From: Mobula hypostoma
Lineage: Eukaryota
Direction: 5' to 3'
NCBI RefSeq assembly: GCF_963921235.1
Contig: NC_086108.1
Coordinates: forward strand, 19,220,001 to 19,284,000
Length of the DNA: 64,000 bases
Translations under genes and position numbers: made by a program
Shown here: positions 18,692 to 55,985 of the stretch, piece after piece
Numbering within the stretch: position 1 is the stretch's first letter
Layout of the letters: each line of letters starts with the position of its first letter
Notes under the pieces: model-generated
Databases searched by the model: none
What the model was told of the DNA's origin: nothing
What the model saw: only the letters and a program-made list of their open reading frames with translations

Positions 18692-18897
18692 AGTGGCAGC
18701 TCAGTTATTCAAATAAAATAGAACTCAATTGTCCCACCCAAAGGCAGCACAACCATCAATGCAAAGGGGCAAAGGTATTCTAAAACAAGAAGCTCCTGTG
18801 TTTCTGTATTCCTGAGCTCCTGAGCAATAGTCTTCTAGTGCTCTGTGTTCCTAAGTTCTGGTCTTCCTGAGCTCCTGTGTTCCTGTCTTCCTGTTTT

Positions 18898-20030
18898 AAG
18901 ACCATAAGACCATAAGACAAAGGAGCAGAAGTCAGCCATTCGGCCCATTGAGTCTGCTCTGCTATTTTATCATGAGCTGATCCGTTCTCCCACTTAGCCC
19001 CACTGCCCCGCCTTCTCACCATAACCTTTGATGCCCTGGCTACTCAGATACCTATCAATCTCTGCCTTAAATACACCCAATGACTTGGCCTACACTGCCA
19101 CCCATGGCAACAAGTTCCATAGATTCACCACCCTCTGGCTAAAAAAATTTCTTCGCATCTCTGTTCTGAATGGGCGCCCTTCAATCCTTAAGTCATGCTC
19201 TCTCGTACTAGACTCCCCCACCATGGGAAACAATTTTGCCACATCCACTCTGTCCATGCCTTTCAATATCCGAAATGTTTCTATGAGGTCCTCCCTCATT
19301 CTTCTAAACTCCAAGGAATACAGTCCAACAGCGGACAAACGTTCCTCATATGTTAACCCTCTCATTCCCGGAATCATTCCAGTGAATCTTCTCTGAACCC
19401 TCTCCAAGGTCAGCTCATCCTTTCTTAAAAAAGAAGCCCAAAACTGCCCACAGTACTCCAAGTGAGGTCTTATCATTGCCTTATAGAGCCTCAACATCAC
19501 ATCCCTGCTCCTATACTCTATTCCTCTAGAAATGATTGCCAACATTGCATTCACCTTCTTCACCACCAACTCATCCTGGAGGTTAATCTTAAGGGTATCC
19601 TGCATGAGGTCTCCCAAGTCTCATTGCATCTCAGAACTTTGAATTCTCTCCCCATTTAAATAACAGTCTGCCCATTTATTTCTTCTGCCAAAGTACATAA
19701 CCATACACTTTCCAACATTGTATTTCATTTGCCACTTCTTTGCCTATTCTCCCAATCTATCCAAGTCTCTCTTCATAGCTTCAAAACCTTCCTTTCATAG
19801 TTCATCTTTTCTCTCTTAATGACCTTCTTAGTTTCCTTTTGTAAGCTTTTAAAAACTTCCCAGTCCTCTGTCTTCCCACTAATTTTTGCTTCCTTGTATG
19901 CCCTCTCCTTTGCTTTAACTTTGGCTTTGACTTCTCTTGTCAGCCACGGTTGCATCCTTTTTCCATTTGAAAATTTCTTCTTTTTTGGAATATATCTGTC
20001 TTGCACCTTCCTCACTTCTCGCATAAACTC
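18898..20030 (-). mobile_element. 5'-truncated CR1 LINE with (TCTTATGG)n tail and an internal ~1 kb deletion
   Basis: ORFs 19090-19617 and 19773-20054 are CR1 ORF2 pieces. Closely similar to 45289-46132 and 47128-47370 of the full-length copy. Confidence 0.93.
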
Positions 20031-20464
20031 GAGTCTTCCTGTGTTCCGGAGCACCTGTTTTCCTGTCCTGCTGTCCTCCTGAATCTTGAATTCCTGACAT
20101 CCTGTTTGTCTATACTATTGTGTTCCTGGCTTCCTTAACTCCTGTGTTTCTGAGCTGTGGGGCTCCTGTGCTCCTGAATTCCTTTGCTTTTGTCCTCTTG
20201 TGCTCCTGAGCTCCTGTGTTCCTTTCTACCTGTGTTGCTGAGCTGCTTTGTTTCAGTACATGTGTTCCTGTACTCCTGTGTTCCTGAGCTCCTGTATTTC
20301 TGAGCTCCTGTGTTTCTGAGCTCCAGCGTTCCCGACCTCTAAGTTCTGTGTTTCTCTTTTTCTGTCCTCCCATGTAACTGAGCCTCCTTAACTGAGCTGC
20401 AGGGCTCCTGAGCTCCCAGGCTCCTGCGCTCCTGAATTCCTGCGCTTCCATCCTTCTGAGCTAC

Positions 20465-21058
20465 ACACATAAAAGTTGCTGGTGAACGCAGCAGGCCAGG
20501 CAGCATCTCTAGGAAGAGGTACAGTCGACGTTTCAGGCCAAGACCCTTCGTCAGGACTAACTGAAGGAAGAGTGAGTAAGGGATTTGAAAGTTGGAGGGG
20601 GAGGGGGAGATCCAAAAAGATAGGAGAAGACAGGAGGGGGAGGGATAGAGCCGAGAGCTGGACAGGTGATAGGCAAAAGGGATACGAGAGGATCATGGGA
20701 CAGGAGGTCCGGAAAGAAAGACGGGGGCGGGGGACTCAGAGGATGGGCAAGGGGTATATTCACAGGGACAGAGGGAGAAAAAGGAGAGTGAGAGAAAGAA
20801 TGTGTGTATAAAAATAAGTAACAGATGGGGTACGAGGGGGAGGTGGGGCATTAGCGGAAGTTAGAGAAGTCGATGTTCATGCCATCAGGTTGGAGGCTAC
20901 CCAGACGGAATATAAGGTGTTGTTCCTCCAACCTGAGTGTGGCTTCATCTTTACAGTAGAGGAGGCCGTGGATAGACATGTCAGAATGGGAATGGGATGT
21001 GGAATTAAAATGTGTGGCCACTGGGAGATCCTGCTTTCTCTGGCGGACAGAGCGTAGA
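20465..21058 (-). mobile_element. Penelope-like element 3' end (GIY-YIG endonuclease C-terminus plus terminal repeat region)
   Basis: ORF 20851-21087 contains PVATHFNSTSHSHSDMSIHGL...RLEEQHLIFRLGSLQPDGMN, typical of the Penelope GIY-YIG C-terminal half. Confidence 0.88.
20523..20558 (-). ncRNA. Minimal type I hammerhead ribozyme motif
   Basis: Minus strand: AGTC-CTGACGA-AGG(GTCTTGG)CCT-GAAAC-GTC^GACT. Core CUGANGA/GAAA/GUC is intact, stem I is AGTC:GACT, stem II is AGG:CCT, stem III is the palindrome ACGT. Confidence 0.8.
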
Positions 21059-21149
21059 TAAGCTCTTGGGTTCCTGCTCTCCTGCATTCCTGATATTCTG
21101 TAATCCTGAGCTGTGTTCCAGGCCCCTGCTTTCTTCGGCTCAGCTCCTG

Positions 21150-21385
21150 TGTTCCTGAGCTCTTGTGTTCAAGCATTCCGATGTTCCTGAGCTCCTGTGT
21201 CCCTGTGCTCTTGTGTTCAAGCATTCCGATGTTCCTGAGCTCCTGTGTCCCTGTGCTCTTGTGTTCGAGTATCTCTGTGTTCCTGAGCTCCTGTGTTCCT
21301 GAGCTCCTGTGTTCAAGCATTCCGATGTTCCTGAGCTCCTGTGTCCCTGAGCTCTTGTGTTCGAGTATCTCTGTGTCCCTGAGCT
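21150..21385 (+). repeat. 48-bp (6x8) higher-order repeat, ~5 copies
   Basis: Unit TTGTGTTC AAGCATTC CGATGTTC CTGAGCTC CTGTGTCC CTGTGCTC; 16-aa periodicity in ORF 20877-21392. Confidence 0.85.
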
Positions 21386-22785
21386 TCAGCATTCCTGTCC
21401 TCCTGTGTTACTGAATTCCTGTATTGCTGTCCCCCATGTTTCTGTCCTCCTGTGTTTCTAAGCTCCTGTGTTCCTGTACACATGCGTGCTCCTGGGCTCC
21501 TACCTTCCAGTACTCAGGTGTTTCAGTACTCCTGTGTTCTGGAGCTGCTGTGTTCATGAGGTCCTGTGTTCCAGCACTCCTGTGTTCCTGTACACATCTT
21601 CCTGAGCTGTTGGGCTCCTGTCCTCCTGTGTTCACGAGCTCCTGCATACATGAGGCCCTGTGTTCCAGTACTCCTATGTTCCTGTACTCATATGTTCCAG
21701 AGCTGCTGTGTTCTTGATCTGTTCAGCTCCTGAGCTCCTGATCTCCTGCGTTCCCAGGCTACTGTGCTCCTGAGTTCCTATGTCTCTGTCCTCCTGTGGC
21801 CTTGACCTCTTGTCTTTCTGTCCTCCTATGTTTCTGTGCTACTGTGTCCCTGTGTTCTTCTGTTCCTTTACTCGTGTTCCTTTACAGGCCAAGAAAACAG
21901 GAGCTCCAGAGCTCCCGTGTTCCACTAATCCTGTGTTTCTGTGCTCCACTGTTCCTGGGTTCCACTGGTCCTGTGTTTCTGTCCTCCAGCATTGCAGAGC
22001 TACTGTGTTCCAGTACTCCTGTGTTCCAGTATTCCTGGGCTCCTGAGCACCCAAGAACCTGCATTCCTGGGTTCCTTCTGTGTTCCTGAACTCCTGCGTC
22101 CCTGGACTCCTGTGTTCCTAAGCTGTTGAGCTCCTGACCTGAAATCCTGCTTTCCTGAGCTCCTGTGTTTCTTTCCTTCTGTGTTCCTGAGCTTCTGTCT
22201 TTCTGCCTGCCTGTGTTTCTGTACCATTGTGTTCCTGAGTTCCTGTGTTCCTTTGCACCTGCATTGCTGAGCTCCCATGTTCCAGTAAGCCTTTGTGCCT
22301 GTAAACCTGTATTCCAGTGCTCCAGTGAGTTTGTGATCCAGTGTTTCTGTGTCCAGTGTTCCATTGTCCCTGTGTTCTTGAGCTCCTCTGTCCCTGAGCT
22401 CCTGTATTCCCGAGCTCCCCAGTTCACGGGCTCCTGTGTTTCTGTGTTTCAATAGTCCTGTGTTCCAAAGCTCCTATGTTCCTGAGCTACTGTCCTTCTA
22501 TGTTCCTTTGTTCCTTAGTTCCTGTGTTTCCCTCCTACTGTGTTTCTGTACCACTGTGGTCCTGAACTTCTGTGCTCCTGTGTTTCTGTACTACTGTGTT
22601 TCTGAGCCTGCGTTGTCCTTTACCTCTGTGTTCCTTTACGCCTGCATTGTTGAGCTCCTGCGCCCCAGTGTTCCTGCACCCCTGTGTTTCTGCACTCCTG
22701 TGGCTTTGAGCTCCAGTCTTTCTGTCACCCAGTGTTTCTGAGCTCCTGTCTTCCTTTACACATGTTCCTTTACACCTGCATTGCT

Positions 22786-22940
22786 GAGCTCCTGTGTTCC
22801 ATTACACCTGTGTTCCTGTACTCCTGTGAACATGAGCTCCTGTGTTCCATTACACCTGTGTTCCTGTACTCCTGTGAACATGAGCTCCTGTGTTCCATTA
22901 CACCTGTGTTCCTGTACTCCTGTGAACATGAGCTCCTGTT
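22786..22940 (+). repeat. 48-bp (6x8) higher-order repeat, ~3 copies
   Basis: Unit CTGTGTTC CATTACAC CTGTGTTC CTGTACTC CTGTGAAC ATGAGCTC. Confidence 0.9.
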
Positions 22941-23532
22941 TTCCTCAGCTGCTGTATTCCTGAGTTCCTGTGTTTCTTTCCTCGTGTTACAGACCTCCCA
23001 TGCTTCTCACTCAACTATATTTATGTCCCCCTGTGTTCCTCTCCTCCCATATTCCCGAGTCCCTATGTCTTTGTCCTCCTGTGTACCTGAACTCCTCTGT
23101 TGCTGTCCTCCTGAGTTTCTCTGCTACTGTTTTTTGGTCCACCTATGTTTCTGTCCTCCTGTCTTCCCTACCTAATGTGCTCCAGTACTCCTGTGTTCCC
23201 AGGCTACTGTCTTGCTGATCTGATATGCTTATGCTCTTTTGTGATCCTGGGCTCCTAGATTCCTGTCATCATGTGCTCCTGAGCTCCTGTACTTCAGCCC
23301 TCCTGTGTTCCTGGGCTCTTGTGTTCCTGATCTCCTATGTTTATATTCTTTTGTGTGCCTGAGCTCCTGTTTTCCTGTGTTGCTCAGCTCCTTTGTTCCT
23401 TCTCTTGTGGCTTTGAGCTGTGTTTCTGTCCTACTCTTTTTCTGTTGCTACTGTGTTCCTTTACCCATGTAACTTTACACTTGCGTTGCTGAGCTCCCAT
23501 ATTCCAGTACACCTGTGTTCTCGTACACCAGT

Positions 23533-24360
23533 TTCCTGTGCTCCAGTGTTCCTATGTTCCAGAGTTCCAGAGCTCCTGTATTCCAATGTCCCTGTGTTCC
23601 AGTATTCCTGTATTCTAGAGTTCCTGTGTTCCAGTGTTCCTATGTTCCAGAGTTCCAGAGCTCCTGTATTCCAATGTCCTTGTGTTCCAGTATTCCTGTA
23701 TTCTAGAGTTCCTGTGTTCCAGTGTTCCTATGTTCCAGAGTTCCAGAGCTCCTGTATTTCAATGTCCCTGTGTTCCAGTATTCCTGTATTCTAGAGTTCC
23801 TGTGTTCCAGTGTTCCTATGTTCCAGAGTTCCAGAGCTCCTGTATTCCAATGTCCCTGTGTTCCAGTATTCCTGTATTCTAGAGTTCCTGTGTTCCAGTG
23901 TTCCTATGTTCCAGAGTTCCAGAGCTCCTGTATTCCAATGTCCCTGTGTTCCAGTATTCCTGTATTCTAGAGTTCCTGTGTTCCAGTGTTCCTATGTTCC
24001 AGAGTTCCAGAGCTCCTGTATTCCAATGTCCCTGTGTTCCAGTATTCCTGTATTCTAGAGTTCCTGTGTTCCAGTGTTCCTATGTTCCAGAGTTCCAGAG
24101 CTCCTGTATTTCAATGTCCCTGTGTTCCAGTATTCCTGTATTCTAGAGTTCCTGTGTTCCAGTGTTCCTATGTTCCAGAGTTCCAGAGCTCCTGTATTCC
24201 AATGTCCCTGTGTTCCAGTATTCCTGTATTCTAGAGTTCCTGTGTTCCAGTGTTCCTATGTTCCAGAGTTCCAGAGCTCCTGTATTCCAATGTCCCTGTG
24301 TTCCAGTATTCCTGTATTCTAGAGTTCCTGTGTTCCAGTGTTCCTATGTTCCAGAGTTCC
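23533..24360 (+). repeat. 88-bp (11x8) higher-order repeat, ~9.4 near-identical copies
   Basis: Near-identical ORFs start every 88 bp (23634, 23722, 23810 ... 24162). Confidence 0.97.
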
Positions 24361-26144
24361 TGTGTCCCTGACCTCCTGTATTCCTGAGCTTCTGCATTCC
24401 TGTCTTCCTGTGTTCCAGACCTCTTGAGTACCTATGATTTTGTCTTCCTGTATACCAGAGCTCCTGTGTTTCTGATGACCTGTGTTTCTGACGACCTGTG
24501 TTTCTGGACTCATGTTTTCCAGAGTCAGTGGGCACCTGAGCTCCTGGTGCCCGTATTCACAGGCTCCTGTTTTTCTGTAGTCCTCTGTTTCTGTACTACT
24601 GTATTTCTGGGCTCCTGTGTTCCTTTACACCTGCGTTGCTGAGTTCCCATTTTCTGGTACACCTGCATTCCTGTGCTCTAGTGCACCTGTACTCCTGTGT
24701 TCCTTTGTCCCTGAGCTCCTGTCTTTCTCTCCTCCTATGTTCTGGCACTCATGTGTTCCTGGGCTCCTGTGTTGCTGAACTGCTGGCTTCATGCATTCCC
24801 AGGTTCCTGCGTTACTAATTTCCTATGTTTCTGTCCTCCTGTGTTCCTGAGCTCTTGTGTTTCTGCACTCTTGTATCCCTGTACTACTGTGTTTCTGAGC
24901 TCCTGTGATCCTCTACCCCTGTGGTGCTTTACACCTGTGTTAATGATCTCCTGTGTTCTGGTATTCCCATTTCTGTGCTTCAGTGTTCACAGGTTCCTGT
25001 TTCCCTGAGCCACGGGACACCTGAGCTCACGAGCTGCTGCGTTCCCAGGCTCCTGTGTTTCTGAGCTCTTCTGTTCCTTTAACTGTGTTCTTTTCCATCT
25101 GCATTTCTGTGTGTCCTGTGTTCCTGACTTCCTGTCCTCCTGTGTTCCTGTAGTCATGTGTTCTTGAGCTCTAGTGCTGCTGAGCTGGTGGGCCCCTGCA
25201 TTCCCTGGCTCCTGTGTTCCTGAGCTCTGGTGTTCCTGCATTCCTCTGTTTCTGAGTCCCTGTGTTTCTGTGCTCCTGTGTACCTGAGCCACACTCTTGC
25301 TGTCTTCCCATGTTTCTCTCCTGTTGAGCTTCTGTGCTCTTTTACCCCCGTGTTCCTGTGCTCCAGTGTTCCTGTACCCCAGTCTTCCTGTGCTCCAGTG
25401 ATCTTGTGTTCCTGAGCTCCTGTTATTCTGTCCTCCTGTGTTCCCAAGCTCCTGTGTAATAGTACTCCTGTGTTCCAGAGTGGCCGTGATCCTGAGTTCC
25501 TGTGTTCCTGGTCTCCCATGATCCTCAGCTCCTGTGTTCCTTTACCACTCTGCTTCTGTACACCTGTGACACTGAGCTCCTGTGTTCCTTTACACAGTGT
25601 TCCTGTGCTCCTGTGTACCTGAGCCTCTCTCTTGCTGTCTTCCCATGTTTCTCTCCTGCTGAGCTTCTGTGTTCTTTTACCCCCGTGTTCCTGAGTTCCT
25701 GTTATACTGTCCTCCTGTGTTCCTAAGCTCCTGCAAATAGTACTCCTGTGATCCTCAGCTCCTGTGTTCCTTTACCACTCTGTTCCTGTACACCTGCATC
25801 ACTGAGTTCCTGTGTTCCAATACATATGTGTCCCTGTGCTCCAGCATTCTTCTGCTCCCATGTTCCTGAGCTGCTGGGGTCCTGAAGTCTTGGGTTCCTG
25901 CATTCTGAACTGTTGTGCTTCTGGCCTTGTGTTCCTGAGCTCCTGTGTTTCCAAGCTCCAGTGTTCCTGAGTTCCTGTGATCCTGTATTTCTATCGTCCT
26001 GTGTACCTGAGCTCTTGTGTTTCTGCACTCCTGTATTTCTGTACTACTGTTTCTGAGCTGCCATGGTCCTTTGCTCCTGTGCTCCTTCACACCTGTGTTA
26101 CTAAGCTCCTGTGTTTTGGTTCACCAGTGTTCCTGTGCTCCTTT

Positions 26145-26356
26145 AGAACATAGAACAGTACAGCACAGTACAGGCCCTTTGGCTCACAATGTTGTGCCGA
26201 CCCTTAAACCCTGCCTCCCATATAACCCCCCACCTTAAAGCCATGTCCTCTTGTATTGAGCAGTGGGGCCCTGGGGAAGAGGCACTGGCTGTCTATTCCT
26301 CTTAATATCTTGTATACCTCTATCATGTCTCCTCTCATCCTCCTCCTCTCCAGAGA
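26145..26356 (-). mobile_element. CR1 3' end fragment with an internal deletion
   Basis: AGAACATAGAACAGTACAGCACAG tail; same family as 14908-15324 and 18384-18650. Confidence 0.88.
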
Positions 26357-27330
26357 ATGTTCCAGAGCTCCTGTTTTTCTGAGCTGCTGGGAACCTACAT
26401 TCCCAGGCTCCTGTCATTCAGTTCTCCTCTGCTTCTGTACTACTGTGTTTCTGAGCTCTTATGCTCCATTACATCCGAGTTGCTGTGTTCCAGTGTTCCT
26501 AAGCTCCTGATTTTCTGTCCTTCTGTGTTCCTGAGATCATGTGATCCTGTATCCTCCTCTGTTCCTGGGCTCCTTTGTTGCTGGGCTCACATCTTCCTGA
26601 GCTCCTGTCTTCCTAAGTGTGAGTGTTCCAGCACTCTTGTTTTCTGGAGCTCCCATTTTCCTGAGCTGCTTGGCTTCTGAGCTCCCATGCTCCTGCATTC
26701 CCAGAGTTTGTGTGTTCCTATGTTTTTATACTTCTGTGTACCTGAGCTTCCGTGTTTCTGCTATCCTGTATTTCTATACTGCCGTGTTTCTAAGCTCCCG
26801 TGTTCCAGTATTCCTGTGTTCTTTTACTCATGTGTTCCAGGCTCCTGTGTTCCTGAGCTATTGTGGTTCAGGCCTCCTGGTTTCCTGAGCTCCTGTGTTC
26901 CAGTACTCTTGTGTTCCCGAACTCCAGTGTTCCTACATTCCTACGTTCCTGAGCTGTTGTCTTTCTGTCCTCCTAGTTTCCTGAGCTCCTGCGTTCCTGT
27001 CTGCCCGTGTTACCGGGCTCCTTTGTCCCTGGACTCCCGTGTTTCTGAACTCCCGTGTTCCCGAGCTCGTATGCTCATGAGCTCCAGTGCTCCTGTGCTC
27101 TAGAGTTCCTTTGCTCTAGTGATTCTGTGTTCCTGAGTTCCTGTTTTTCCTGTCCTGCTATGTTCCTGAGCACTTATGTTCCAGTACCCCTGCATTCCTG
27201 AGCTCTGGAGTTCCTGCACTCCTGTGTTTCTGACCTCCTATGTTTCTGTCTTCTTGTGTACATGAGATCTGTTGCTGTCCTCCAGTGTTTCTTTCCTACT
27301 GTGTTTCTATGCTAATGTGTTCCTGAGCTC

Positions 27331-27570
27331 CTGTGTTCCAGTACGTGTGTGTTCCTGTACACCTGTGCTCCTGTGTTCCAGCACGTGTGTGTTCCTGTAC
27401 ACCTGTGCTCCTGTGTTCCAGTACGTGTGTGTTCCTGTACACCTGTGCTCCTGTGTTCCAGTACGTGTGTGTTCCTGTACGCCTGTGCTCCTGTGTTCCA
27501 GTACGTGTGTGTTCCTGTACACCAATGCTCCTGTGTTCCAGGATGTGTGTATTCCTGTACACCTGTGCTC
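27331..27570 (+). repeat. 40-bp (5x8) higher-order repeat, ~6 copies
   Basis: Unit CTGTGTTC CAGTACGT GTGTGTTC CTGTACAC CTGTGCTC. Confidence 0.93.
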
Positions 27571-28227
27571 CATTGATCCTTTGCTCCAGAGCTCTAGCTT
27601 TTCTGTCCCCCTGTGTTCATGGGCTCCTGTGTTCTTGTCACCCCGTGTTCCTGAGCTGCTGGGCTCCTGTACTCCTAGACTCTCGCATTCCCAGGCTCCT
27701 GTGTTCCTAACCTATTGTGTTCCTGGTCTCCTGTGTTCCTCAGTTTCTATGCTCCTGTCATCCTGTGTTCTGGAGCTTCTGTTCTCCCAAGCTGCTGGAC
27801 TCCTGAGCTCTTGGGCTCCTACGTTCCCATGCCTCTGTGTTTCTGATCTCCTGTGTTGCTGAGCTCCTTGTTCCTGCATTCCTGTGTTCCTGTGCTCCAG
27901 TGTGCTGGTGCTACTGTGTTCCTGACTCCTGTGTTTCTGTCATCCTGTGTTCCTGAGCTGCTGTGTTCCTTTAACCCTGTGTTCCAGAGCTTCTACTTTC
28001 CTGATCTGCTGGGTTTCTGAGCTCCCTGGCTCCTATGTTCCCAGGCTCCTGTGTTCCTGAGCTTCTGTGTTTCTGAACTCCTATGTTTCAGTCCTCCAGT
28101 GTACCTGAGCCCACCAGTTGCAGTCCACCTGTGTTTCTCTCCTACTGAGTTTCCGTACTATTATATTCCTGAGCACCTGTGTTCCTTTACCTTAGGTATT
28201 CCTGTACAACTGTGTTGCTGAGCACCG

Positions 28228-30107
28228 GTGCAAGGCTAGAACTTGCGGGTGTGAATTGGGATGATGTTTTTGCAGGCAAATGTACTATGGACATGTGGTC
28301 GATGTTTAGAGATCTCTTGCGGGATGTAAGGGATAAATTTGTCCCGGTGAGGAAGATAAAGAATGGTAGGGTGAAGGAACCATGGGTGACAAGTGATGTG
28401 GAAAATCTAGTCAGGTGGAAGAAGGCAGCATACATGAGGTTTAGGAAGCAAGGATCAGATGGGTCTATTGAGGAATACAAGGAAGCAAGAAAGGAGCTTA
28501 AGAAGGGGCTGAGAAGAGCAAGAAGGGGGCATGAGAAGGCCTTGGCGAGTAGGGTAAAGGAAAAAACCCAAGGCATTCTTCAATTATGTCAAGAACAAAA
28601 GGATGACAGGAGTGAAGGTAGAACCGATTAGAGGTAAAGGTGGGAAGATGTGCCTGGAGGCTGTGGGAGTGAGCGAGGTCCTCAATGAATATTTCTCTTC
28701 GGTATTCACCAATGAGAGGGAACTTGATGATGGTGAGGACAATATGAGTGAGGTTGATGTTCTGGAGCATGCTGATATTAAGGGAGAGGAGGTGTTGGAG
28801 TTGTTAAAGTACATTAGGACAGATGAGTCCCCGGGGCCTGACGGAATATTCCCCAGGCTGCTCCACGAGGCGAGAGAAGAGATTGCTGAGCCTCTAGCTA
28901 GGATCTTTATGTCCTCGTTGTCCACGGGAATGGTACCGGAGGATTGGAGGGAGGCGAATGTTGTTCCCTTGTTCAAAAAAGGTAGTAGGGATAGTCCGGG
29001 TAATTATAGACCAGTGAGCCTTACGTCTGTGGTGGGAAAGCTGTTGGAAAAGATTCTTAGAGATAGGATATATAGGCATTTAGAGAATAATGGTCTGATC
29101 AGGGACAGTCAGCATGGCTTTGTGAAGGGCAGATCGTGTCTAACGAGCCTGATAGAGTTCTTTGAGGAGGTGACCAGGCATATAGATGAGGGTAGTGCAG
29201 TGGATGTGATCTATATGGATTTTAGTAAGGCATTTGACGGTAGGCTTACTCAGAAAGTTAGAAGGCATGGGATCCAGGGAAGTTTGACCAGGTGGATTCA
29301 GAATTGGCTTGCCTGCAGAAGGCAGAGGGTCGTGGTGGAGGGAGTACATTCAGATTGGAGGATTGTGACTAGTGGTGTCCCACAAGGATCTGTTCTGGGA
29401 CCTCTACTTTTCGTGATTTTTATTAACGACCTGGATGTGGGGGTAGAAGGGTGGGTTGGCAAGTTTGCAGACAACACAAAGGTTGGTGGTGTTGTAGATA
29501 GTTTAGAGGATTGTCAAAGATTGCAGAGAGACATTGATAGGATGCAGAAGTGGGCTGAGAAGTGGCAGATGGAGTTCAACCCGGACAAATGTGAGGTGGT
29601 ACACTTTGGAATGGACAAACTCCAAGGCAGAGTACAAAGTAAATGGCAGGATACTTGGTAGTGTGGAGGAGCAGAGGGGTCTCAGGGTACACGTCCACAG
29701 ATCCCTGAAAGTTGCCTCGCAGGTGGATAGAGTAGTTAAGAAAGCTTATGGGGTGCTAGCTTTCATAAGTCAAGGGATAGAGTTTAAGAGTCGCGATGTA
29801 ATGATGAAGCTCTATAAAACTCTGGTTAGGCCACACTTGGAGTATTGTGTCCAGTTCTGGTCACCTCACTATAGGAAGGATGTGGAAGCATTGGAAAGGG
29901 TACAGAGGAGATTTACCAGGATGTTGCCTGGTTTAGAAAGTATGCATTATGATCAGAGATTAATGGAGCTAGGGCTTTACTCTTTGGAGAGGAGGAGGGT
30001 GAAAGGAGACATGATAGAGGTGTACAGGATAATAAGAGGAAAAGATAGAGTGGATAGCCAGCGCCTCTTCCCCAGGGCACCACTGCTCAATACAAGAGGA
30101 CATGGCT
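28228..30107 (+). mobile_element. CR1 LINE ORF2 (RT) internal fragment, frameshifted and truncated at both ends
   Basis: ORFs 28179-28631, 28603-29661 (NYRPVSLTS, QHGF, DFSKAFD, GVPQGSVLGP, KFADNTK) and 29534-30136. It stops at ...TRGHG with no 3' tail. Confidence 0.95.
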
Positions 30108-34378: not shown

Positions 34379-34395
34379 GAACGATCTGGCCACAA

Positions 34396-45288: not shown

Positions 45289-48200
45289 ATAAGACCATAA
45301 GACAAAGGAGAAGAAGTCGGCCATTCGGCCCATCGAGTCTGCTCTGCCATTTTATCATGAGCTGATCCATTCTCCCATTTAGTCCCACTCCCCTGCCCTG
45401 GCTACTCAGATACCTATCAATCTCTGCCTTAAATACACCCAATGACTTGGCCTCCACTGCTGCCCCTGGCAACAACTTCCATAGATTCACCACCCTCTGA
45501 CTAAAAAAATTTCTTCGCATTTCTGTTCTGAATGGACGCCCTTCAATCCTTAAGTCATGCCCTCTCGTACTAGACACCCCCATCATGGGAAACAACTTTG
45601 CCACATCCACTCTGTCCATGCCTTTCAACATTCGAAATGTTTCTATGAGGTCTCCCCTCATTCTTCTAAACTCCAAGGAATACAGTCCAAGAGCAGACAA
45701 ACGTTCCTCATATGTTAACCCTCTCATTCCCGGAATCATTCTAGTGAATCTTCTCTGTACCTTCTCCAAAGTCAGCACATCCTTTCTTAAATAAGGAGAC
45801 AAAAACTGCCTACAGTACTCCAAGTGAGGTCTCACCAGCACCTTATACAGCCTCAACATCACATCCCTGCTCCTATACTCTATTCCTCTAGAAATGAATG
45901 CCAACATTGCATTCGCCTTCTTCACTACCGACTCAACCTGGAGGTTAACCTTAAGGGTATTCTGTACGAGGACTCCCAAGTCCCGTTGCATCTCAGAACT
46001 TTGAATTCTCTCCCCATTTAAATAATAGTCTGCCCATTTATTTCTTCTGCCAAAGTGCATAACCATACACTTTCCAACATTGTATTTCATTTGACACTTC
46101 TTTGCCATTCTTCCAATCTATCCAAGTCTCTCTGCAGACTCTCCGTTTCCTCAGCACTACCAGTCCCTCCACCTATCTTCATATCATCAGCAAACTTAGC
46201 CACAAAGCCACCTATTCCATAATCCAAATCATTGATGTACAATGTAAAAAGAAGCAGCCCCAACATGGACCCCTGTGGTACACAACTGGTAAATGGCAGC
46301 CAACCAGAATAGGATCCCTTTATTCCCACTCTCTGTTTCCTGCCAATCAGCCAACGCTCTATCCACGTATGTAACTTTCCCGTAATTCCATGGGCTCTTA
46401 TCTTGTTAGGTAGCCTCATGTGTGGCACCTTGTCAAATGCCTTCTGAAAATCCAAATATACAACATCCACTGCATCTCCCTTGTCTAGCCTGCTGGTAAT
46501 TTCCTCAAAAAATTGTAATAGGTTTGTCAGGCAAGATTTTCCTTTAAGGAATCCATGCTGAGTTCTGCCTATCTTGTCATATGCCTCCAGGTACTCTGTA
46601 ACCTCATCCTTAACAATCGACTCCAACAACTTCCCAACTACCGATGTCAAGCTAACAGGTCTATAATTTCCTTTTTGCTTCCTTGCCCCCTTCTTAAAGA
46701 GCAGAGTGACATTTGCAATCTTCCAGTGCTCCGGAACTATGCCAGAACCTATCGACTTTTGAAAGATCATCGCTAATGCCTCCGCAATCTCCACAGCTAC
46801 TTCCTTCAGAACACGTGGGTGCATTCCATCTGGTCCGGGAGATTTATCTACCTTTACACTATTCAGCTTCCTGAGTACTTTCTCTGTCGTAATTGTGACT
46901 GCACACACTTCTCTTCCCTGCCACCCTTAAGTGTCCAGTATACTGCTGATGTCTTCCTCAGTGAAGACTGATGCAAAATACTCGTTCAGTTCCTCTGCTA
47001 TCTCCTTATCTCCCATTATAATCTCTCCAGCATCATTTTCTATCGGTCCTATATCTACTCTCACCTGCCTTTTACTCTTTATATACTTGAAAAAGCTTTT
47101 AGTATCCTCTTTGATATTATTTGCTAGCTTCCTTTCATAGTTAATCTTTTCCCTCTTAATGACCTTCTTAGTTTCCTTTTGTAAGGTTTTAAAAACTTCC
47201 CAATCCTCTGTCTTGCCACTAATTTTTGTTTCCTTGTATGCCCTCTCCTTAGCTTTAACTTTGGCTTTGACTTTTCTTGTCAACCACGGTTGCATCCCTT
47301 TTCCACTTGAAAATTTCTTCTTTTTTGGAATATACCTGTCTTGCACCTTCCTCATTTCTCGCATAAACTCCAGCCACTGCTGCTCTGCCGTCTTTCCCGC
47401 CAGTGTCTCTTTCCAGTCAACTTTGGCCAGTTCCTCTCTCATGCCACTGTAGTTTCCTTTACTCCACTGAAATACCGACACTTCAGATTTTGGCTTCTCT
47501 TTTTCAAATTTCACAGTGAACTCAATCATGTTATGATCACTGCCTCTTAAGGGTTCCTTCACCTCAATCTCTCCAATCACCTCCAGTTCATTACACAATA
47601 CCCAATCCAGTACAGCCGATCCCCTAGTGGGCTCAACAACAAGCTGTTCTAAAAAGCCATCTCGCAGACATTCTACAAATTCTCTCTCTTGAGATCCAGT
47701 GCTGACCTGCTTTTCCCAATCTACTCGCATGTTAAAATCCCCCATGATTATCATAACACTGCCCTTCTGACAAACCTTTTCTATTTCCTGTTGTAATTTG
47801 TAGTCCACATCCCTGCAGCTGTTTGGAGGCCTATCAGGGTCCTTTTACCCCTACGATTTCTTAGCTCAACCCATAAAGATTCTGCACCTTCCGATCCTAT
47901 ATCACCTCTTTCTAATGATTTAATATCATTTCTTACCAATAACGCCACGCCTCCCCCTCTGCCTACCTTCCTATTCTTCTGATACACCGTGTATCCTTGG
48001 ACGTTCAGCTCCTAGAGACATGCATCCTTTAGCCAGGTCTCAGTGATGGCCACAATATCATACCTGCCAATCTGTAGCTGTACGACAAGATCATCTGCCT
48101 TATTCCTTAGGCTGCGTGCATTTAGTATAACACCTTAAGACCAGTATTTGGTACTTTTCGCTTTGATTTCACTGCAACTTTATTGCACTGCAACTCATCC

Positions 48201-49695
48201 CAATGGCTACAAATTTGCCCCATCACCTGCCTGTCTTTCCTGACATCTTTACTGCTCACTATCTTAGGTTTATTTCTGCTTTCCCCTTCCTCCGCTCTGT
48301 CATTCCGGTTCCCACACCCCTGTCAAATTAGTTTAAACCCTCCCTAATAGCTCTATTAAAGTTTCCCGCCAGGATATTGGTCCCCTTTGGGTTCAGGTGT
48401 AACCTGTCCTTTTTGAATAGGTCATACTTCGCCCAGAAGAGATCCCAATTATCCAAGAATCTGAAGCCCTGCCCCCTACACCAGTCTCTCAGCCACGCAT
48501 TCATCTGCCTGATCCTACAATTCTTGCCCTCGCTAGCACATGGCACAGGTAGCAATCCCGAGATTACTACCCTGGAGGTCCTGCTTCTCAGCTTCCTTCC
48601 TAACTCCTGGAAATCTCTCTTCAGTACCTCCTCCTTTGTCCTATCTATGTCACTGGTACCAACATGTACCAAGACAACTGGCTGCTCACCCTCCCCCTTC
48701 AGAATATTCAGGACCCGATCCAAGACATCCCGTACCCTGGCACCTGGGAGGCAACACACCATGCGGGTATCTCTATCAGGCTCACAGAATCTCCTGTCCA
48801 TTCCCCTGACTATGGAATCCCCTATGACTACCGCATTCCTCTTCTCCCTCCTTCTCTCCTGCACAACAGCGCCGGGCCCAGTGCAGAGACCCAGGCACTG
48901 TGGACATCCCCTGTCAGGTCATCCCCCTCAACAGCATCCAGAACAAGATATCTGTTGCTGAGGGGGACAGCCACAGGTGTGCTCTCCACTGTCCGGGCAT
49001 TTCCCTTCCCTCTCTTTACAGTGATCCAGTTTTCTGACCCCTGTAGCCTAGGGATGACTACCTCCCTGTAGCTCCTGTCTATCACCTCTTCACTTTCCCT
49101 GATAAGCAGTAGGTCATCAAGTTGCAGCTCCAGATCCCTAACATGGTCTCTGAGGAGCTGCATCTCGGTGCACCTGGCGCAAGATGTGGCCATCAGGGAG
49201 GCTGGAGGTCTCCCAGGATTCCCACATCTGACACCCTGAACAAAGCACTAACCTTGCAGGCATGCTATCTAATTCTACAGGAATGAAACAGGAAAAATAA
49301 GTCTACTCACCCACTTACCTCACAAAACAGATGAACTTTTTAAACCGTTAGCTCGTACCATTAGCTGTGAGAGCCCTGTTGTTCCTGTCTGTCCAGGCCT
49401 TTTTGTGAAAGGGAAGCGGGAGGGAGAAAAAAAGAGTTGGTGTTTCGCTCTCGCCTCTTCCCGTTTACCGCCGAAGCCGTTGAAGCCAAAGCCCTACACT
49501 CTGCTACCACTCACTCCGCTGCCCGCTCTGACCGCTGCCCGCTGTATTGGGTGTTCTCCTTTTTAAACTCTCCGTGCTGTCCTGTCGACATCACGCACCT
49601 GCGCAGTCTCGTCCTTCTTGCACTTGAATAAGTTTTTAAAAAAACTGCCTTCCTTCAGAATTCAGCTCCCATGACGCTCTATAGTCCCGATCCAA
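45289..49695 (-). mobile_element. Near full-length CR1 LINE: ORF1 (zinc finger plus SGNH esterase) and ORF2 (APE endonuclease plus RT), frameshifted
   Basis: ORF1 ~49263-48328 (CSGC..CARC; IGDSIVRG; VHVGTSD; DRLHLN). ORF2 ~48150-45390 (GGGVALLV, MGDFN, SDHN, KFADD). (TCTTATGG)n tail. TSD AAGTCC at 45283-45288 and 49696-49701. Confidence 0.96.
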
Positions 49696-50103
49696 AAGTC
49701 CTCCCCGGGGTGGCTCTTTTCCCTCTTTTGTCCTGAAACAGTGGCCATGGAAGAATACACTGGAGGCATTGGCCATGGGGTTTATCCGTCTATCCACCTC
49801 GCCGACAGGAGCAGGCGTCTATTTTTGCTTGTGAACAGGAAAGATGGCAAGCTCCATCCCTGCATCGAATATCGACCCCTTAACAATATCACTTGAGATC
49901 CGTTACCCTCTTCCCCTGCTGGTGTCTGCATTTGAACATCTCCAGGGAGCAACCATATTTTCCAAAATGAATCTACACAATGCTCACAGTCTCTTTCATG
50001 TGAAAAAGGGGGATGAGTGGAAGACCGCTTTCAACATCTCAAATGGCCACTGAGTACATAGTGATGCCCTTTGGTCTCGCCAAGACTCCCGCTGTTTTCC
50101 AGG

Positions 50104-50667
50104 TGTAACTCTCTCTTCCGCCAGCTGCTTAATATAGAGGGTGATAGCCCCCAGCCCGGCCAAACTTAAGAAATCTCATTTGGGTGGATGCTGCGCGATG
50201 TGTCCCCTTTTACAAATCAGTATCCCGAAATAACAAACAGTACACAATATGCGATTAAACGATTAAGTTTTATAATTCTTACTTTGACTATGTGGTTAGT
50301 GAAGAAACGAAAAAAAAAGAAAAAAAGGGCCCAATCTTATTAAACAGTCTGTTGCGTAGTGTTGGAGTTCACTGATAAGCCAATCGTCCACCATTGACCT
50401 CCTCCGATAGTCGCTGCCCTTCGGACCCTCGCACCAAGTCCACCCCATCCGGCAGTCTACCAACCCTCTCCATTCGCGTCTTCACTCATCTCTCCCGGGC
50501 AAAAGACCGCGAAAATCTCTCTTCCAGCTCACAAGAAAGAACAACAGCATTCCAAACCCCGTTATCTCTAGTCATAACCCAAACATTGCTGCTACAGAGG
50601 AAGCATTATATTATCAGTGAAACCTTACAGCAAGTTACACAGCAGTGAATCCCTACAACATGTTACA
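50104..50667. mobile_element. Solo LTR inserted in the Gypsy RT
   Basis: TGTAAC...GTTACA perfect terminal inverted repeat; 4-bp TSD CAGG (50100-50103 and 50668-50671). The host frame PAVFQ|VLVDDVLRD rejoins when it is removed. Confidence 0.92.
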
Positions 50668-51920
50668 CAGGTCTTAGTTGACGATGTGCTCAGAGACGTG
50701 TTGAACCATTTTGTTTTTGTGTATTTATCTATTCTCTCTCTCACCGGGAACACGTCCAGCATGTCCGCATGTCTGCAGGGTTCTCAGAGGGCTCCTTGAA
50801 AATAACCTGTACCCCGAGACCGAGAAATGCGAGTTCCAACCAGGCCAAGTGTCGTCTCGTTTGGCTGTCAAGGAGGCCCTGGAGGCTAGGTGACACTGGC
50901 TGGAGGTGGCAGTGCATCCTCTCTTGGTTTAGACGGATCACAAGAACCTCTCCTACATTCAGGCCGCAGAGACTGAATTCCCGTCAAGTCCGGTTCTTCG
51001 CCTGGTTCAATTTCATCCTTGCCTATTGTCCCGACAGCAAGAGTACCAAGGACAACATTCTCTCCCAGCAGTTCCACGGATCTGAGGGCAATGCCAATCC
51101 AGAGACCATTCTTCCTCGTTCGTGCATTGCTGCTCCTGTAACTTGGGGAACAGAGGTGGGTGTAAGGGCCGCCCAACAGTCGGACCCAGGACCTCCCAAC
51201 CAGCTGTTAGACCCTGCAAAGGTGTGCTCCACAGGGTTGGAATGGGGTCACTTCTCCCATCTGGCTGGCCATCCGGGATTTCAATGGACCCAGGGGTTTA
51301 TTAAGAGACAATTTTGGTGGCTGTCGATGTCCCAGGGTGTCCATGACTTCGTATCTGCCTGTCCCACCTGCGTTCAGAAAAAGACGTCACGCCACCGTCT
51401 GCTATGTCCACTGCCTATGCCCCACTGCCCCTGGTCTCACCTCTCAGTGGATTTTATCACTGGTCTGCCCCCATCTACTGGAAACACTACCATTTTATTC
51501 CTAGTGGGTGGATTCTCCAACACTGTCCACTTCTTTACCCTTCATAAACTCCTGTCGGCTCGTGAGACTGCCACGCTCATGGTTCAACACGTGTTCAGGC
51601 TCCACAGCTTCCCCCGAGATATAGTCTGTTCATGACTACAATTTACTTCCCACTTTAGGTAGGCTTTCTGCTCTCTTGTAGAAGCTATAGCCAGTCTCTC
51701 GTCTGTTTTCTACACCCTGAGCTCCCGTATTCTTGTACTCCTCTGTTCCCGTGTTCCCAAGTTCCTAAGTGCCGCGTTTCTGTACACCTGTTTTCCTGAG
51801 CGCCTGTGTGCCCGAAGTCCTGTCTTCCTGGGCCCCACAGTTCCTGGACTCATGAACACCTGTGTTCCTAAGCTCCTCTAGAGTACTCCTGTCATGTTGG
51901 GCTCCTGGGCTCTGTACTTA

Positions 51921-53125
51921 ACCATATAACCATATAACAATTACAGCACGGAAAAAGGCCATCTCGGCCCTTCTAGTCCATGCCGAACTCTTACTCTCAC
52001 CTAGTCCCATCAACCTGCACTCAGCCCATAACCCTCAATTCCCTTCCTGTCCATATATCTATCCAGTTTAACTTTAAGTGACAACATCAAACCTGCCTCA
52101 ACCACTTCTGCTAAAAGCTCGTTCCACACAGCTACCACTCTCTGAGTAAAGAAGTTCCCCCTCATGTTACCCCTAAACTTTTGCCCTTTAACTCTCAACT
52201 CATGTCCTCTTGTTTGAATCTCCCCTACTCTCAATGGAAAAAGCCTATCCACGTCAACTCTATCTATCCCCCTCATAATTTTAAGTACCTCTATCAAGTC
52301 CCCCTTCAACCTTCTACACTCCAAAGAATAAAGGCCCAACTTGTTCAACCTTTCTCTGTAACTTAGGTGATGAAACCCAGGTAACATTCTAGGAAATCTT
52401 CTCTGTACTCTCTCTAATTCGTTGACATCTTTCCTATAATTCAGTGATCAAATCTGTACACAATACTCCAAATTTGGCCTTAATAATGCCTTGTACAATT
52501 TCAACATTACATCCCAAATCCTATACAGTACTCAATGCTCTGATTTATAAAAGCCAGCATACCAAAAGCTTTCTTCACCACCCTGTCCACATGAGATTCC
52601 ACCTTCAGGGAACTATGCACCATTATTCCTAGATCCCTCTGTTCTACAGCATTCTTCAATGACCTACCATTTATCATGTATATCCTATTTTGATTAGTCC
52701 TACCAAAATGTAGCACCTCACATTTATCAGCATTAAACTCCATCTATTATCTTTCAGCCCACTCTTCTAACTGGTCTAAATCTCTCTGCAAGCTTTGAAA
52801 ACCTCCTTCATTATCCACAACTCCACCTATCTTAGTATCATTTGCATACTTACTAATCCAATTTACCACCCCTTCATCCAGATCATTAATGTATATGACA
52901 AACAACATTGGACCCACTACAGATCCCTGAGGCACACCACTAGTTACCGGCCTCCAATCTGACAAACAGTTATCCACCACTACTCTCTGGCATCTCCCAT
53001 CCAGCCACTGTTGAATCCATTTTACTACTTCAATATTAATACCTAACGATTGAACCTTCCTAACTAACCTTCCATGTGGAACCTTGTCAAAGGCCATACT
53101 GAAGACCATATAGACAACATCCACT
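51921..53125 (-). mobile_element. 5'-truncated CR1 LINE with (GTTATATG)n tail
   Basis: ORFs 52010-52387, 52507-52743 and 52747-53124 are CR1 RT pieces; tail ACCATATAACCATATAAC on the + strand. Confidence 0.94.
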
Positions 53126-53228
53126 CGGGTTCTTGTGTGACCCCAAGTCCCTGTGCTCGTTACAGTATTCTTGTGTTCCTCTGCCCCCGTATGTGTTCCT
53201 CTGCTCCCGTCTTCCCGAGACCTGTAGC

Positions 53229-53761
53229 CCTGGGCCCCACAGTTCCTGGGCTCATGAGGACCCGTGTGCCCGATCTCCTGTGGTCCTGGGCCCCACAGTT
53301 CCTGGGCTCATGAGGACCCGTGTGCCCGATCTCCTGTGGTCCTGGGCCCCACAGTTCCTGGGCTCATGAGGACCCGTGTGCCCGATCTCCTGTGGTCCTG
53401 GGCCCCACAGTTCCTGGGCTCATGAGGACCCGTGTGCCCGATCTCCTGTGGTCCTGGGCCCCACAGTTCCTGGGCTCATGAGGACCCGTGTGCCCGATCT
53501 CCTGTGGTCCTGGGCCCCACAGTTCCTGGGCTCATGAGGACCCGTGTGCCCGATCTCCTGTGGTCCTGGGCCCCACAGTTCCTGGGCTCATGAGGACCCG
53601 TGTGCCCGATCTCCTGTGGTCCTGGGCCCCACAGTTCCTGGGCTCATGAGGACCCGTGTGCCCGATCTCCTGTGGTCCTGGGCCCCATAGTTCCTGGGCT
53701 CATGAGGACCCGTGTGCCCGATGTCCTGTGGTCCTGGGCCCCACAGTTCCTGGGCTTATGA
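53229..53761 (+). repeat. 56-bp (7x8) higher-order repeat, ~9.5 near-identical copies
   Basis: Unit CCTGGGCCCCACAGTTCCTGGGCTCATGAGGACCCGTGTGCCCGATCTCCTGTGGT, recurring at 53229, 53285, 53341 and onward. Confidence 0.97.
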
Positions 53762-55985
53762 ACTTCTGTGTGCCCGATGTCCTGTGTTCTTGCGCTACTC
53801 TGATACTGTACTCCTGTCATGCAGGGCTCCTGTATTGCTGATGTCTCGTGTTCTTGTACTCCTCTATTCCTGTGCTCCCGGGCTACAGCGCTCCCGTGAT
53901 GATACGCTCCCATGTTTCCGGACTCATGGGCTCCTGTGTTCCCCACTCCTGTCCTCCTGTATCCCTGATCTCCCGTGTCCCTATGTTCCTGACCACCTGT
54001 GTTTCTATATTTCTGAGCTCCTGTACGTCTGATTTCCTGTGTCCCTGGGTTCCCCTCTCTCTGCCTTTCTGGTCTCCCGTGTCCCTCAGGTCCCATCTTC
54101 CTGTGTTTCTATACTCCTGTGCTCATATGTTCCTGAACTTCTGTAACCCTGATTTTCCATGTTCCTGGGTTCCCCTGTCCCGCGTTTCTTGTCTCCGGGG
54201 CTCCTGTCTCCCCAACTTCCTGAGCTCCCGTATCCCCAGGCGCCAATGTCCCTGAGCTCCTGTGTTCTTCATCTGTTGTGCTCCTGAGCTCCTGTGCTCC
54301 AGAACTCTTGTGCTCCAGAACTGCCGGGATCCATTTTTCCTGGGCACCTGTGTCTCTGACGTCCCATGTTCCTGTCCTACTCTGTTCCCCAGCTGCTCTC
54401 TTCTTGACCTCCTGTGCCTCGGGCTCCGGTGTTCCTAGGCTCCGAACCTCCAGTGCTCCTGGGCTCCAGTGTCCTGTGTTCCTGACCTCCCACGCTGCTG
54501 GGCTCATGACCTCCTGGGCTCCCATGTCCCTCGGCCTCTGTCCCTGAACTTCTGTTCTTCAGCTGCTGTGCTCCCGTCCTCCTGTGTTACCGAGTTCCCT
54601 ATCCCCCGTATCCCTGCCCTCCAGAGCTCCTGTGCTGTTCCTGTACTCCTGTGTGTCTGTACACTGTGCTTCTGAGCTCCTTTGTTACCATGCTCCTGCA
54701 CTCCTGTGATGCTGTATTGCTGTGTCCCCGGGCTCCTGTGCTCCTATCCTGGTGTGTTCCTCAGCTGCTGTGTTCTTGAGCCTCTGTGTTTCTGTACTCT
54801 TGTGTTCCCGAGCTCTTGGGCTCCCAGGCTCCAGATTTCCCATGCTGCTGTGTTCCTTTACTCTTGTGTTCCTGGGCTCCAGTTTCCCAATGTTGCTGAG
54901 ATTTTGTCTTCCACGGCTGCTGTATTCCAGAGGTCCTGTCTTTCCGAAGTCCTGAGCTCTGTGTTCTGTACTCATGTCTTCCTGAGTCCTGTTTTCCTAA
55001 TGTCTTGACTGCTGGGCTCCCGAGTCCCTGCAATCTGTTTTCCCAGGCTCCCAGGCGCCCGTTTCCCTGAATTCTTGTTCTCCTGTGTTTCTGTGCTCCT
55101 GTGCTCTCGAGCTCCTGTGTTACCGTGCATCTGTCTTTCAGAGTTCCTGATCTCCAGTGCTTCTGCCCTCCCAAGCTCTTGTGCTCCTCAGCTGCATGGT
55201 TCCCATTTTCCTGGCCTCCCGTGCTCCAGTCCTCCTTCCGGAGTTCCTGGGCTCCTGTGTTACTGTACTCCCGAGTTCCTTTGTTACCGCGTTTCAGGAC
55301 TCTTAGGCTACTGGACACCTGGGCTCCTGTGATGCTGTATTGCTGTGTTTCCAGGCTGCCGAGCTCTTTAGCTCACGTGTCCCTGGGCTCCCGTGTTCTT
55401 GTATTCCTCAAGTCCCGGGCTACAGAGCTCCCGTGTTTCTGTACTCCTGTGCTCCCGAGTTTCCGTGTTTCTATACTCCCTGTGTTCCTGAGCTCCTGGC
55501 CTCCTGTTTTCCTGAGCTCCTGTGTCATTTGGCTCCCGTGATGCTGAACTCAAGTGTTCTCCAGCTGCTGTGTCTCTGTACACGTGCTCTCGAGCCTCTG
55601 TATTCCCGCTGTGCTACCTCGTTCCTGGGATTCTGAGTTCCTTTGCTCCCGACTTCACATGTTCCTGTACTCTTGTGCTTCGGAGCTCCTGTATTCCCGT
55701 GTTCCTGAGCTCCTGTAGACCTGGCCTCCTGTGTCTGCTTCTGTTCTCCCGAGCATTCCTGTCTTCCTGAGCTCCTGGACTCCAGTGTTCCCGTGTGCTC
55801 GGGCTTCCCTGTTCCTGTGCTCGTGAGCTTCTGTAATGCCGTACTCCTGCGTCCCTGGGCTCTTACGTTCCTGAGCTTCTGGATTCCTATGCCCTCGAGC
55901 CCCCGGGTTCCTGCGTTCCTGCGCTCATTAAAGAGAGAAACAGCAACTGCAGTAATGTTTAGCACGGCCATGCCCCAATCCCAAA

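Follow-up and report, generated by a model that had tools for sequence, protein, structure and literature searches.

A degenerate octamer satellite, probably at a single locus, with local in-register minisatellites in Mobula hypostoma

Introduction

Does a 37-kb domain of pyrimidine-rich octamers in the ray Mobula hypostoma represent an undescribed kind of element, or an old short-monomer satellite within which longer repeats keep arising? The domain was examined within a 64,000-nucleotide stretch of contig NC_086108.1 (hereafter the window, in whose coordinates all positions are given). We consider it very likely that this is a non-coding, probably single-locus satellite that decays neutrally and in which minisatellites are born locally and in register with the unit.

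Extent, orientation and periodicity of the octamer matrix

To delimit matrix segments, a cyclic 8-state model was trained on the sequence of the window; it returned ten segments between 18792 and 55926 that sum to 15,301 of the 37,135 bases of the domain (15.3 kb). All lie on the + strand, with no - strand segment in the window, in line with the preliminary description of about 15 kb in ten same-strand segments; one inverted piece of about 20 bp was found near 21888-21910.

18792..18897, +: segment 1 (cyclic 8-state model)
20033..20462, +: segment 2 (8-state model); contigs from two related organisms, B and C, cover it
21059..26142, +: segment 3, the longest (8-state model, autocorrelation)
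21888..21910, -: small inverted matrix piece, about 20 bp
26358..28231, +: segment 4 (8-state model)
30105..31724, +: segment 5 (8-state model)
32691..33083, +: segment 6 (8-state model)
38841..41455, +: segment 7 (8-state model)
42098..42288, +: segment 8 (8-state model)
51716..51912, +: segment 9 (8-state model)
53136..55926, +: segment 10, richest in G+C and CpG (8-state model)

Autocorrelation over 21059-23532 was 0.52 at lag 8, 0.58 at lag 16 and 0.47-0.54 at lags 24-64, compared with 0.20-0.32 at lags other than multiples of eight and a top value of 0.325 in 200 base shuffles, such that the peaks expected at every 8n were present and exceeded the shuffles. Along the matrix, TCCTGTGT-type units alternate with TCCTGAGC-type units, which makes it really 16-periodic; same-type neighbours occur at 0.26-0.46 of expectation and TGT/AGC neighbours at 1.4-1.6. 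The 8-bp periodicity originally claimed thus stands, whereas its place as the dominant period is taken by 16 bp. The pyrimidine share per segment (0.60-0.70) agrees with the pyrimidine-rich, one-orientation character first reported, an asymmetry to be expected wherever a skewed unit is arrayed in one direction.

Insertions make up 59% of the domain span and separate the segments as follows.

18898..20032, -: LINE fragment, CR1-like by our reading, 94% to parts of the long LINE (45394-45693, 47128-47373); summed depth near 1e6
20463..21058, strand unassigned: high-copy interspersed repeat, summed depth 5.8e6 (run X1)
26143..26357, -: short LINE end fragment, 92-97% to other-strand LINE pieces at 14927-15303
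28232..30104, +: LINE fragment with reverse transcriptase, CR1-like (PF00078, E 8e-28)
31725..32690, -: LINE 3' part, 64% to the LINE at 19032-19331, no Pfam match
33084..38840, +: decayed Gypsy-type LTR retrotransposon with chromodomain, after the 3' part of a tandem copy
41456..42097, strand unassigned: non-periodic insertion, a gap between matrix segments in the 8-state model
42289..51715, +: second decayed Gypsy-type element (integrase zinc finger) with a nested LINE and other pieces
about 45290-49600, -: near-full-length LINE nested in the second Gypsy (RVT_1, endonuclease, GDSL esterase)
51913..53135, -: LINE fragment with reverse transcriptase (PF00078, E 3e-14)

Among the matches listed for the 28232-30104 LINE, proteins of stingray and devil ray gave the top identities, 87% and 85%. 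The Gypsy element at 33084-38840 carries Gag, RNase H, integrase, SH3 and chromo domains, and its LTRs (33962-34377 and 38438-38840) share 374 identities with 29 mismatches and 14 gaps. Preferential insertion of retroelements into the array was considered and dropped, as the flanks are repeat-rich too.

Young blocks within the matrix

The five homogenised blocks first reported, of 48, 48, 88, 40 and 56 bp, were all recovered, together with a shorter doublet.

21134..21422, +: young 48-bp block, 6 octamers, irregular; lags 48, 96, 144
22771..22955, +: young 48-bp block, 6 octamers; about two copies absent in organisms B and C
23520..24390, +: young 88-bp block, 11 octamers, 9.4 copies, 99% matches
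27315..27572, +: young 40-bp block, 5 octamers, about 6 copies
53170..53213, +: 20-bp doublet, breaking the 8n rule
53213..53789, +: young 56-bp block, 7 octamers, 10 copies, 97%

Each block splits into whole octamers (6, 6, 11, 5 and 7 respectively), and copies within blocks are 88-97% alike versus an identity of 0.47-0.58 at 8n lags in the matrix. Together the blocks comprise 2,180 of the 15,301 matrix bases, and none has swept the array. Segment 9 is 87% alike over 60 bp to the 56-bp block, the 51913-53135 insertion lying between them. The rule that all higher-order repeats are multiples of 8 therefore holds for these five blocks but not for the 20-bp doublet, nor for older internal duplications at lags 335, 230, 279, 575 and 559 (8n-1 or 8n-2). 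Of the short homologies that the matrix contains at lags 17-104, 66-68% are spaced at 8n and the remainder mostly at 8n-1 or 8n-2, and because two thirds of them are at 8n, homology-dependent misalignment would explain why the block lengths are all multiples of eight. TRF periods of 53, 62, 47, 63, 214 and 39 (71-80% matches) failed an 85% ungapped test and were rejected.

Copy number and comparison with relatives

Depth and the contigs of relatives were compared over 10520-23500, a span that includes about 3.0 kb of matrix (from a total of 15.3 kb), with 2.2 kb falling in clean bins. In run X1, at 80% likeness, summed depth was 20-32 in the five pure-array bins (of 30), whereas five unique-flank bins gave 10-25 and transposon bins reached 5.8e6, on a measure of summed contig depth that does not equal copy number and that sister arrays less than 80% alike escape. 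The high-copy, genome-homogenised state of a classical satellite was not seen at this likeness in these five bins (2.2 kb), where depth was flank-like. The 2.2 kb of matrix tested is probably single-locus, and the same may hold for the domain as a whole.

In the related organisms B and C the matrix compared is collinear, with a difference of about 5.5% that is similar to that of the flank. Differences to B and C numbered 91/1617 and 87/1594 in array pieces and 69/1550 and 177/3544 in flank pieces (array versus flank P 0.14 and 0.49), based on the 16 pieces listed from runs X5 and X6, with 552,489 further pieces outside the listing. The contigs of both organisms skip 112-113 bases at 22791-22905, in the 22771 block, equivalent to about two 48-mers, which may reflect a gain in the present genome or a loss in B and C. 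Copy number thus differs between organisms at one of the five blocks, in a comparison that reached as far as 23500 and so preceded the 88-, 40- and 56-bp blocks. This length difference and the whole-octamer make-up of the blocks favour the original proposal, namely in-register birth of minisatellites within an old matrix. A search of metagenome contigs for an exact 29-base consensus gave no matches, which carries no information because that collection is not aimed at vertebrates and the pattern does not occur verbatim in the window.

An older host array and the origin of the domain

The octamer domain is nested in an older, degenerate array of 22-24-bp units that the preliminary description had overlooked, and both domain ends adjoin it.

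16883..17206, +: left part of the 22-24-bp array hosting the octamer domain; profile matches spaced mostly 22-25 bp
18696..18789, +: units of this array adjoining the left end of the octamer domain; three profile matches (18696, 18744, 18766)
55924..60385, +: right part, patchy (55924-57580, 59245-59420, 60235-60385)

On hand-picked regions a cyclic 24-state model scored 352, and eight shuffles gave -94 to -124. When reversed, the 24-bp profile aligns with the octamer across 8 columns at P 0.02, and the other two lengths tried gave 0.09 and 0.16.

It is possible, though we think it the lesser prospect, that the domain is one copy of a dispersed, old genome-wide satellite, or a mobile-element tandem repeat (e.g. 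of a Gypsy LTR) that expanded here. Outside the domain the 8-state model picks one more stretch, the 134 bp at 60964-61097, contained in an LTR-like piece at about 60400-61560 and matching the matrix at 75-81% over 42-62 bp. However, these weak matches, 5 kb off, were the only sign of transposon derivation; the domain has no flanking element halves, its ends adjoin the 22-24-bp array instead, and its depth is flank-like at 80% likeness. Were the domain a member of a dispersed family, its local evolution would be unchanged and its origin alone would differ.

CpG decay, coding potential and possible function

An A stands next in 79 of the 202 units with C in column 3, and in 80 of the 969 with T (P 4e-25), a pattern that points to the TG>CG>CA path of CpG decay and so suggests methylated, neutrally decaying DNA. 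CpG density is graded along the array, from about 6-11 per kb on the left to 31 on the right.

A functional array acting through motif density on the CpG-rich region at about 1-7500, either as a factor platform (HSat3-like) or as the repeat core of a lncRNA, is in our judgement unlikely. It would fit the single orientation across 37 kb, the density of TGTTCC and TTCCTG (16-17 per kb, versus <1 outside), retention in two relatives and the precedent of human HSat3 as a factor landing platform, as given in part of PMC11526998. Against this, divergence equals that of the flank, insertions occupy more than half of the span, the CpG-decay signature is present, Rfam returned no match at gathering score, and an array's own words are dense in any tandem array; flank-level divergence may nevertheless be compatible with a function needing motif density alone. 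ARAGORN found no genes, and a Pfam scan of 150 non-repeat frames, which small exons would escape, gave two sub-threshold DUF matches only and no gene for the CpG-rich region. Run X7, presumed RNA, had a depth of 0-4.2 in the five pure-array bins, which has no bearing on expression. An account in three nested generations, whereby an inverted 8-bp piece of the 24-bp unit would have seeded the octamer, the array would have extended from one of its ends (which would make the CpG gradient one of age) and been kept across rays as a motif platform for the CpG-rich region, strikes us as improbable when taken as a whole.

Very improbable, too, is an immunoglobulin switch-like region targeted by AID via AGCT. 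AGCT density marks axolotl switch regions (PMC9911811, in part) and reaches 14.9 per kb in the matrix versus 3.6 outside, but AGCT merely belongs to one unit, G runs on the purine strand match background (CCCC at 4.5 per kb both within the matrix and beyond it), and no perfect recombination signal was present, only three loose ones, of which two fall in retroelement or matrix sequence. No immunoglobulin domain was found in the 183 frames scanned within the window (33 + 150; 66 of 222 non-repeat frames, all <=55 aa, were left out), and a search of the switch-region literature for sharks returned nothing relevant. That the purine strand encodes a low-complexity repeat protein is largely refuted and scarcely credible, since the 301-codon open frame at 39195-40100 (-), although P was 0.010 versus unit shuffles, came from one of 14 tests (about 0.14 after correction) and has neither a homologue among 1916 candidates nor a Pfam match, stop codons occur in every frame on both strands of the matrix, and there are 110 phase jumps, mostly of 1-2 bases, over the 11 modelled segments. 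Judged by its sequence, with stops in all frames and neither homologue nor Pfam match, the matrix is non-coding.

A proposed history and relation to known satellites

For a neutrally decaying satellite, the reading we prefer, octamer amplification would have begun inside one unit of the older 22-24-bp array, the 8-bp unit soon becoming a 16-bp pair (TCCTGTGT + TCCTGAGC types) whose head-to-tail copies came to fill at least 15 kb. Homogenisation across the whole array would then have ceased, and the methylated matrix would have gathered point mutations and small deletions and been broken up as LINEs and Gypsy elements inserted. With self-similarity at 8n lags still about 55%, slippage or unequal exchange in the matrix would mostly shift pairing by whole units, and a chance duplication of 5-11 units could create two identical neighbours from which a local minisatellite expands.

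The domain is classed as a degenerate short-monomer satellite/minisatellite with local higher-order repeats, given its head-to-tail monomers in one orientation, multimers more alike than monomers, copy number that differs between organisms at one block and non-coding sequence. The suggestion that it is an undescribed kind of element does not survive comparison, as longer units or local higher-order repeats built from short monomers are already described in parts of PMC5615363 and PMC11406999. Among the closest known systems are the degenerate telomere repeats of Arabidopsis, in which diverged monomers of ~7 bp form local higher-order repeats, each made of 2 to 5 monomers or more, and for which slippage and unequal crossing over are invoked (PMC11406999, in the portion concerned); those repeats are telomere-derived and at chromosome ends, whereas the ray unit is of 8/16 bp, non-telomeric and retroelement-cut. 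Human HSat2/HSat3 likewise combine a divergent short ancestral monomer (CATTC), one strand orientation and longer composite units, but form megabase pericentric arrays on many chromosomes, in contrast to the 15 kb, seemingly single-locus ray array of unrelated sequence (excerpted from PMC4022460). The centromeric satellites of mouse, tilapia and sparids also derived longer units from a short monomer (9 nt), by cycles of duplication and divergence, yet in those satellites the longer unit took over the entire array, unlike the five small ray blocks (PMC5615363, in part). Simple tandem repeat-rich regions are abundant in elasmobranchs, red stingray included, and are reported in the relevant parts of two sources as amounts and distribution, without the present unit (PMC10620051, bioRxiv 10.1101/2025.06.08.657570). 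Three 16-base motifs were unmatched in the literature, and a search for elasmobranch tandem-repeat satellites surfaced, in partial text, only a Y-linked shark satellite.

The significance of the locus is modest, with no new mechanism or element class indicated. Its value is as a natural record of satellite ageing, from 24-bp array through 16-bp matrix to five young minisatellites, in which relatives could help to date the steps of nesting, and it could be a test locus for the birth of higher-order repeats in the slowly evolving cartilaginous fishes. The young blocks may also serve as length markers.

Structure and affinities of the octamer satellite

The octamer domain at 18792-55926 is real, probably unnamed and most likely a satellite of an ordinary kind: neutrally decaying, apparently confined to a single locus, nested in an older satellite and carrying local higher-order expansions. 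Trained on the window itself, a cyclic 8-state model yielded T C C T G [T/A/G] G [C/T] as its profile, with ten segments inside these limits (15,301 of 37,135 bases) and a single 134-bp fit outside the domain at 60964-61097. All ten lie on the + strand and none was found on the - strand of the window, in agreement with the single orientation of the preliminary description. The 8-bp autocorrelation peak it had named as a check was present over 21059-23532 at all lags of 8n as far as 64 (0.47-0.58; maximum of 200 shuffles, 0.325). The 1816 whole units fall into 629 types, the most frequent being TCCTGTGT (143), TCCTGAGC (72), TCCTGGGC (50) and TCCTGTGC (40). Since octamers of one type adjoin each other less often than expected and autocorrelation is higher at lag 16 than at lag 8, a 16-bp pair forms the first level of higher-order structure. 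At 21888-21910 about 20 matrix bases are inverted, adjoining a self-complementary word containing AGCT.

The earlier proposal of an undescribed element may hold for the sequence; for its kind it is not supported. The unit was not found in the literature by motif sequence or topic, and may already have a name in repeat libraries. According to PMC5615363 and PMC8122249, it is standard in satellites that short monomers duplicate and diverge into longer units, with homogenisation by higher-order repeat. The nearest parallel comes from degenerate telomere repeats in Arabidopsis, for which PMC11406999 describes local homogenisation and multi-unit blocks, attributed to slippage and unequal crossing over; HSat2 and HSat3 are analogues on a large scale (PMC4022460). 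Regions rich in tandem repeats are common in sharks and rays, as stated in PMC10620051 and 10.1101/2025.06.08.657570.

Insertions and the enclosing array

All nine gaps between octamer segments are insertions: LINE pieces, which give reverse transcriptase matches at three sites, a pair of decayed Gypsy-type elements and two unclassified repeats. The window comes from a ray; its LINE protein at 28558-29658 had top identities of 87% (stingray) and 85% (devil-ray) over about half its length, among the 120 matches listed. Segments 9 and 10 (51716-51912 and 53136-55926) are linked by a 60-bp match spanning the insertion at 51913-53135.

Inserted elements and the array enclosing the octamer domain
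33084-38840: Gypsy element with chromodomain; a tandem in which the 3' part of one copy precedes a full copy flanked by LTRs
45290-49600: LINE of nearly full length lying inside the second Gypsy element; its first frame has a GDSL esterase
16883-17206, 18696-18789 and, patchily, 55924-60385, + strand: 22-24-bp array, spacings mostly 22-25 bp

The LTRs of the first Gypsy element differ at 29 of 403 aligned sites (~7%), and the matrix therefore predates that element.

The 22-24-bp array, older and heavily decayed, surrounds the octamer domain on the same strand and picks up directly at either end. Both ends of the domain read as falling inside one unit of this array. The 13 columns unused in unit choice carry 2.8 bits (maximum 1.7 in 2000 random draws), and a 24-state model scored 352 against -94 to -124 for eight shuffles, the regions having been chosen by eye. 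Transposon halves were looked for in the flanks of the domain and none was present. Reversed, the 24-bp profile is similar to the octamer across 8 columns (P 0.02), but across 12 (P 0.09) or 24 (P 0.16) the likeness is not clear, and birth of the octamer by micro-inversion is consequently only a guess. An LTR-like piece at 60400-61560 has an internal 28-bp repeat with words in common with the octamer.

Young blocks

All five young blocks were found, with copies 88-97% identical, 6, 6, 11, 5 and 7 octamers per block and a total coverage of 2,180 bases. The preliminary description held that homogenised blocks are all multiples of 8 bp; these five are, but a 20-bp doublet at 53170-53213 is not, and older duplications at lags 335, 230, 279, 575 and 559 fall 1 or 2 bases short. 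The latter could have arisen by in-register copying followed by small deletions, which fits the phase jumps in the matrix, 63 of 104 being losses of 1-2 bases. Among short homologies at lags 17-104 in the matrix without young blocks, 66-68% lie on multiples of 8 under five seed definitions; five of five blocks on such multiples therefore has P 0.13-0.15, and a count of five in six is close to expectation. Random block lengths would give (1/8)^5. The preliminary description is thus borne out in that homology steers these events, but any homology-guided mechanism yields multiples of 8, and the rule is unsurprising given the matrix homologies.

Other organisms and decay

The interval 21059-23530 was partly present in six of 12 listed runs, with word shares of 0.91-0.95 in organism A (four runs of one sample, from which the window may derive) and 0.10 and 0.09 in two related organisms, B and C (one run each). 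When 10520-23500 was compared with four runs at 80% likeness, summed depth in one run (X1), which is not copy number and serves only as a contrast between bins, was 20-32 in five pure-array bins, 10-25 in five unique-flank bins and up to 5.8e6 in transposon bins; taken only as such a contrast, the array is no large family at likeness of at least 80%. Within this interval the contigs of B and C are collinear through the matrix, differing, among the 16 pieces listed, by 5.6% and 5.5% in the array and 4.5% and 5.0% in the flanks (array versus flank, P 0.14 and 0.49). At the 22771 block both skip 112-113 window bases, and the adjoining pieces exceed the window by 16 and 24 letters; piece lengths suggest a net shortfall of 96 bases for C and 89 for B, close to two copies of the 48-bp unit. 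Units lie 1.6-1.7 of 8 bases away from whichever of four main types is closest, a gap much wider than that to B and C, and most matrix decay thus appears to predate the split from these organisms.

Methylated CpG is expected to decay along the path TG to CG to CA. In 1581 units, repeat copies of young blocks removed, A stood at column 4 in 79 of 202 units with C at column 3 and in 80 of 969 with T (P 4e-25, the units being not fully independent), as would be expected of neutral decay via putative methylated CpG. From left to right across the domain, G+C climbs from ~0.50 to 0.55 (Spearman P 2e-10) and in-unit CpG from ~6-11 to 31 per kb (P 2e-12), with units counted as independent in both tests; divergence does not drop along the way.

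Possible functions and neighbouring features

Use of the array as a motif platform, like HSat3 (PMC11526998), is an unlikely and unsupported reading. It is most improbable that the domain is an AGCT-rich, switch-like immunoglobulin region: AGCT density in the matrix is four times background, a feature by which PMC9911811 marks switch regions in axolotl, but a scan of 183 frames of the window brought up no immunoglobulin domain, no perfect recombination signal was found in the window, and G runs are not enriched in the matrix. As regards coding, stops occur in every frame of the domain; a 301-codon frame (P 0.010, one among 14 tests) had neither homologue nor domain in searches, and a + strand frame gave P 0.032. 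RNA families had no match in the window.

Outside the domain, 1-7500 is CpG-rich (27-47 per kb versus 1-13 in 8001-13000) and may be regulatory DNA free of methylation; no gene was identified within it. At 16670-16720 (+) a GT donor and an acceptor rich in pyrimidines flank a candidate 46-base exon noted by eye.
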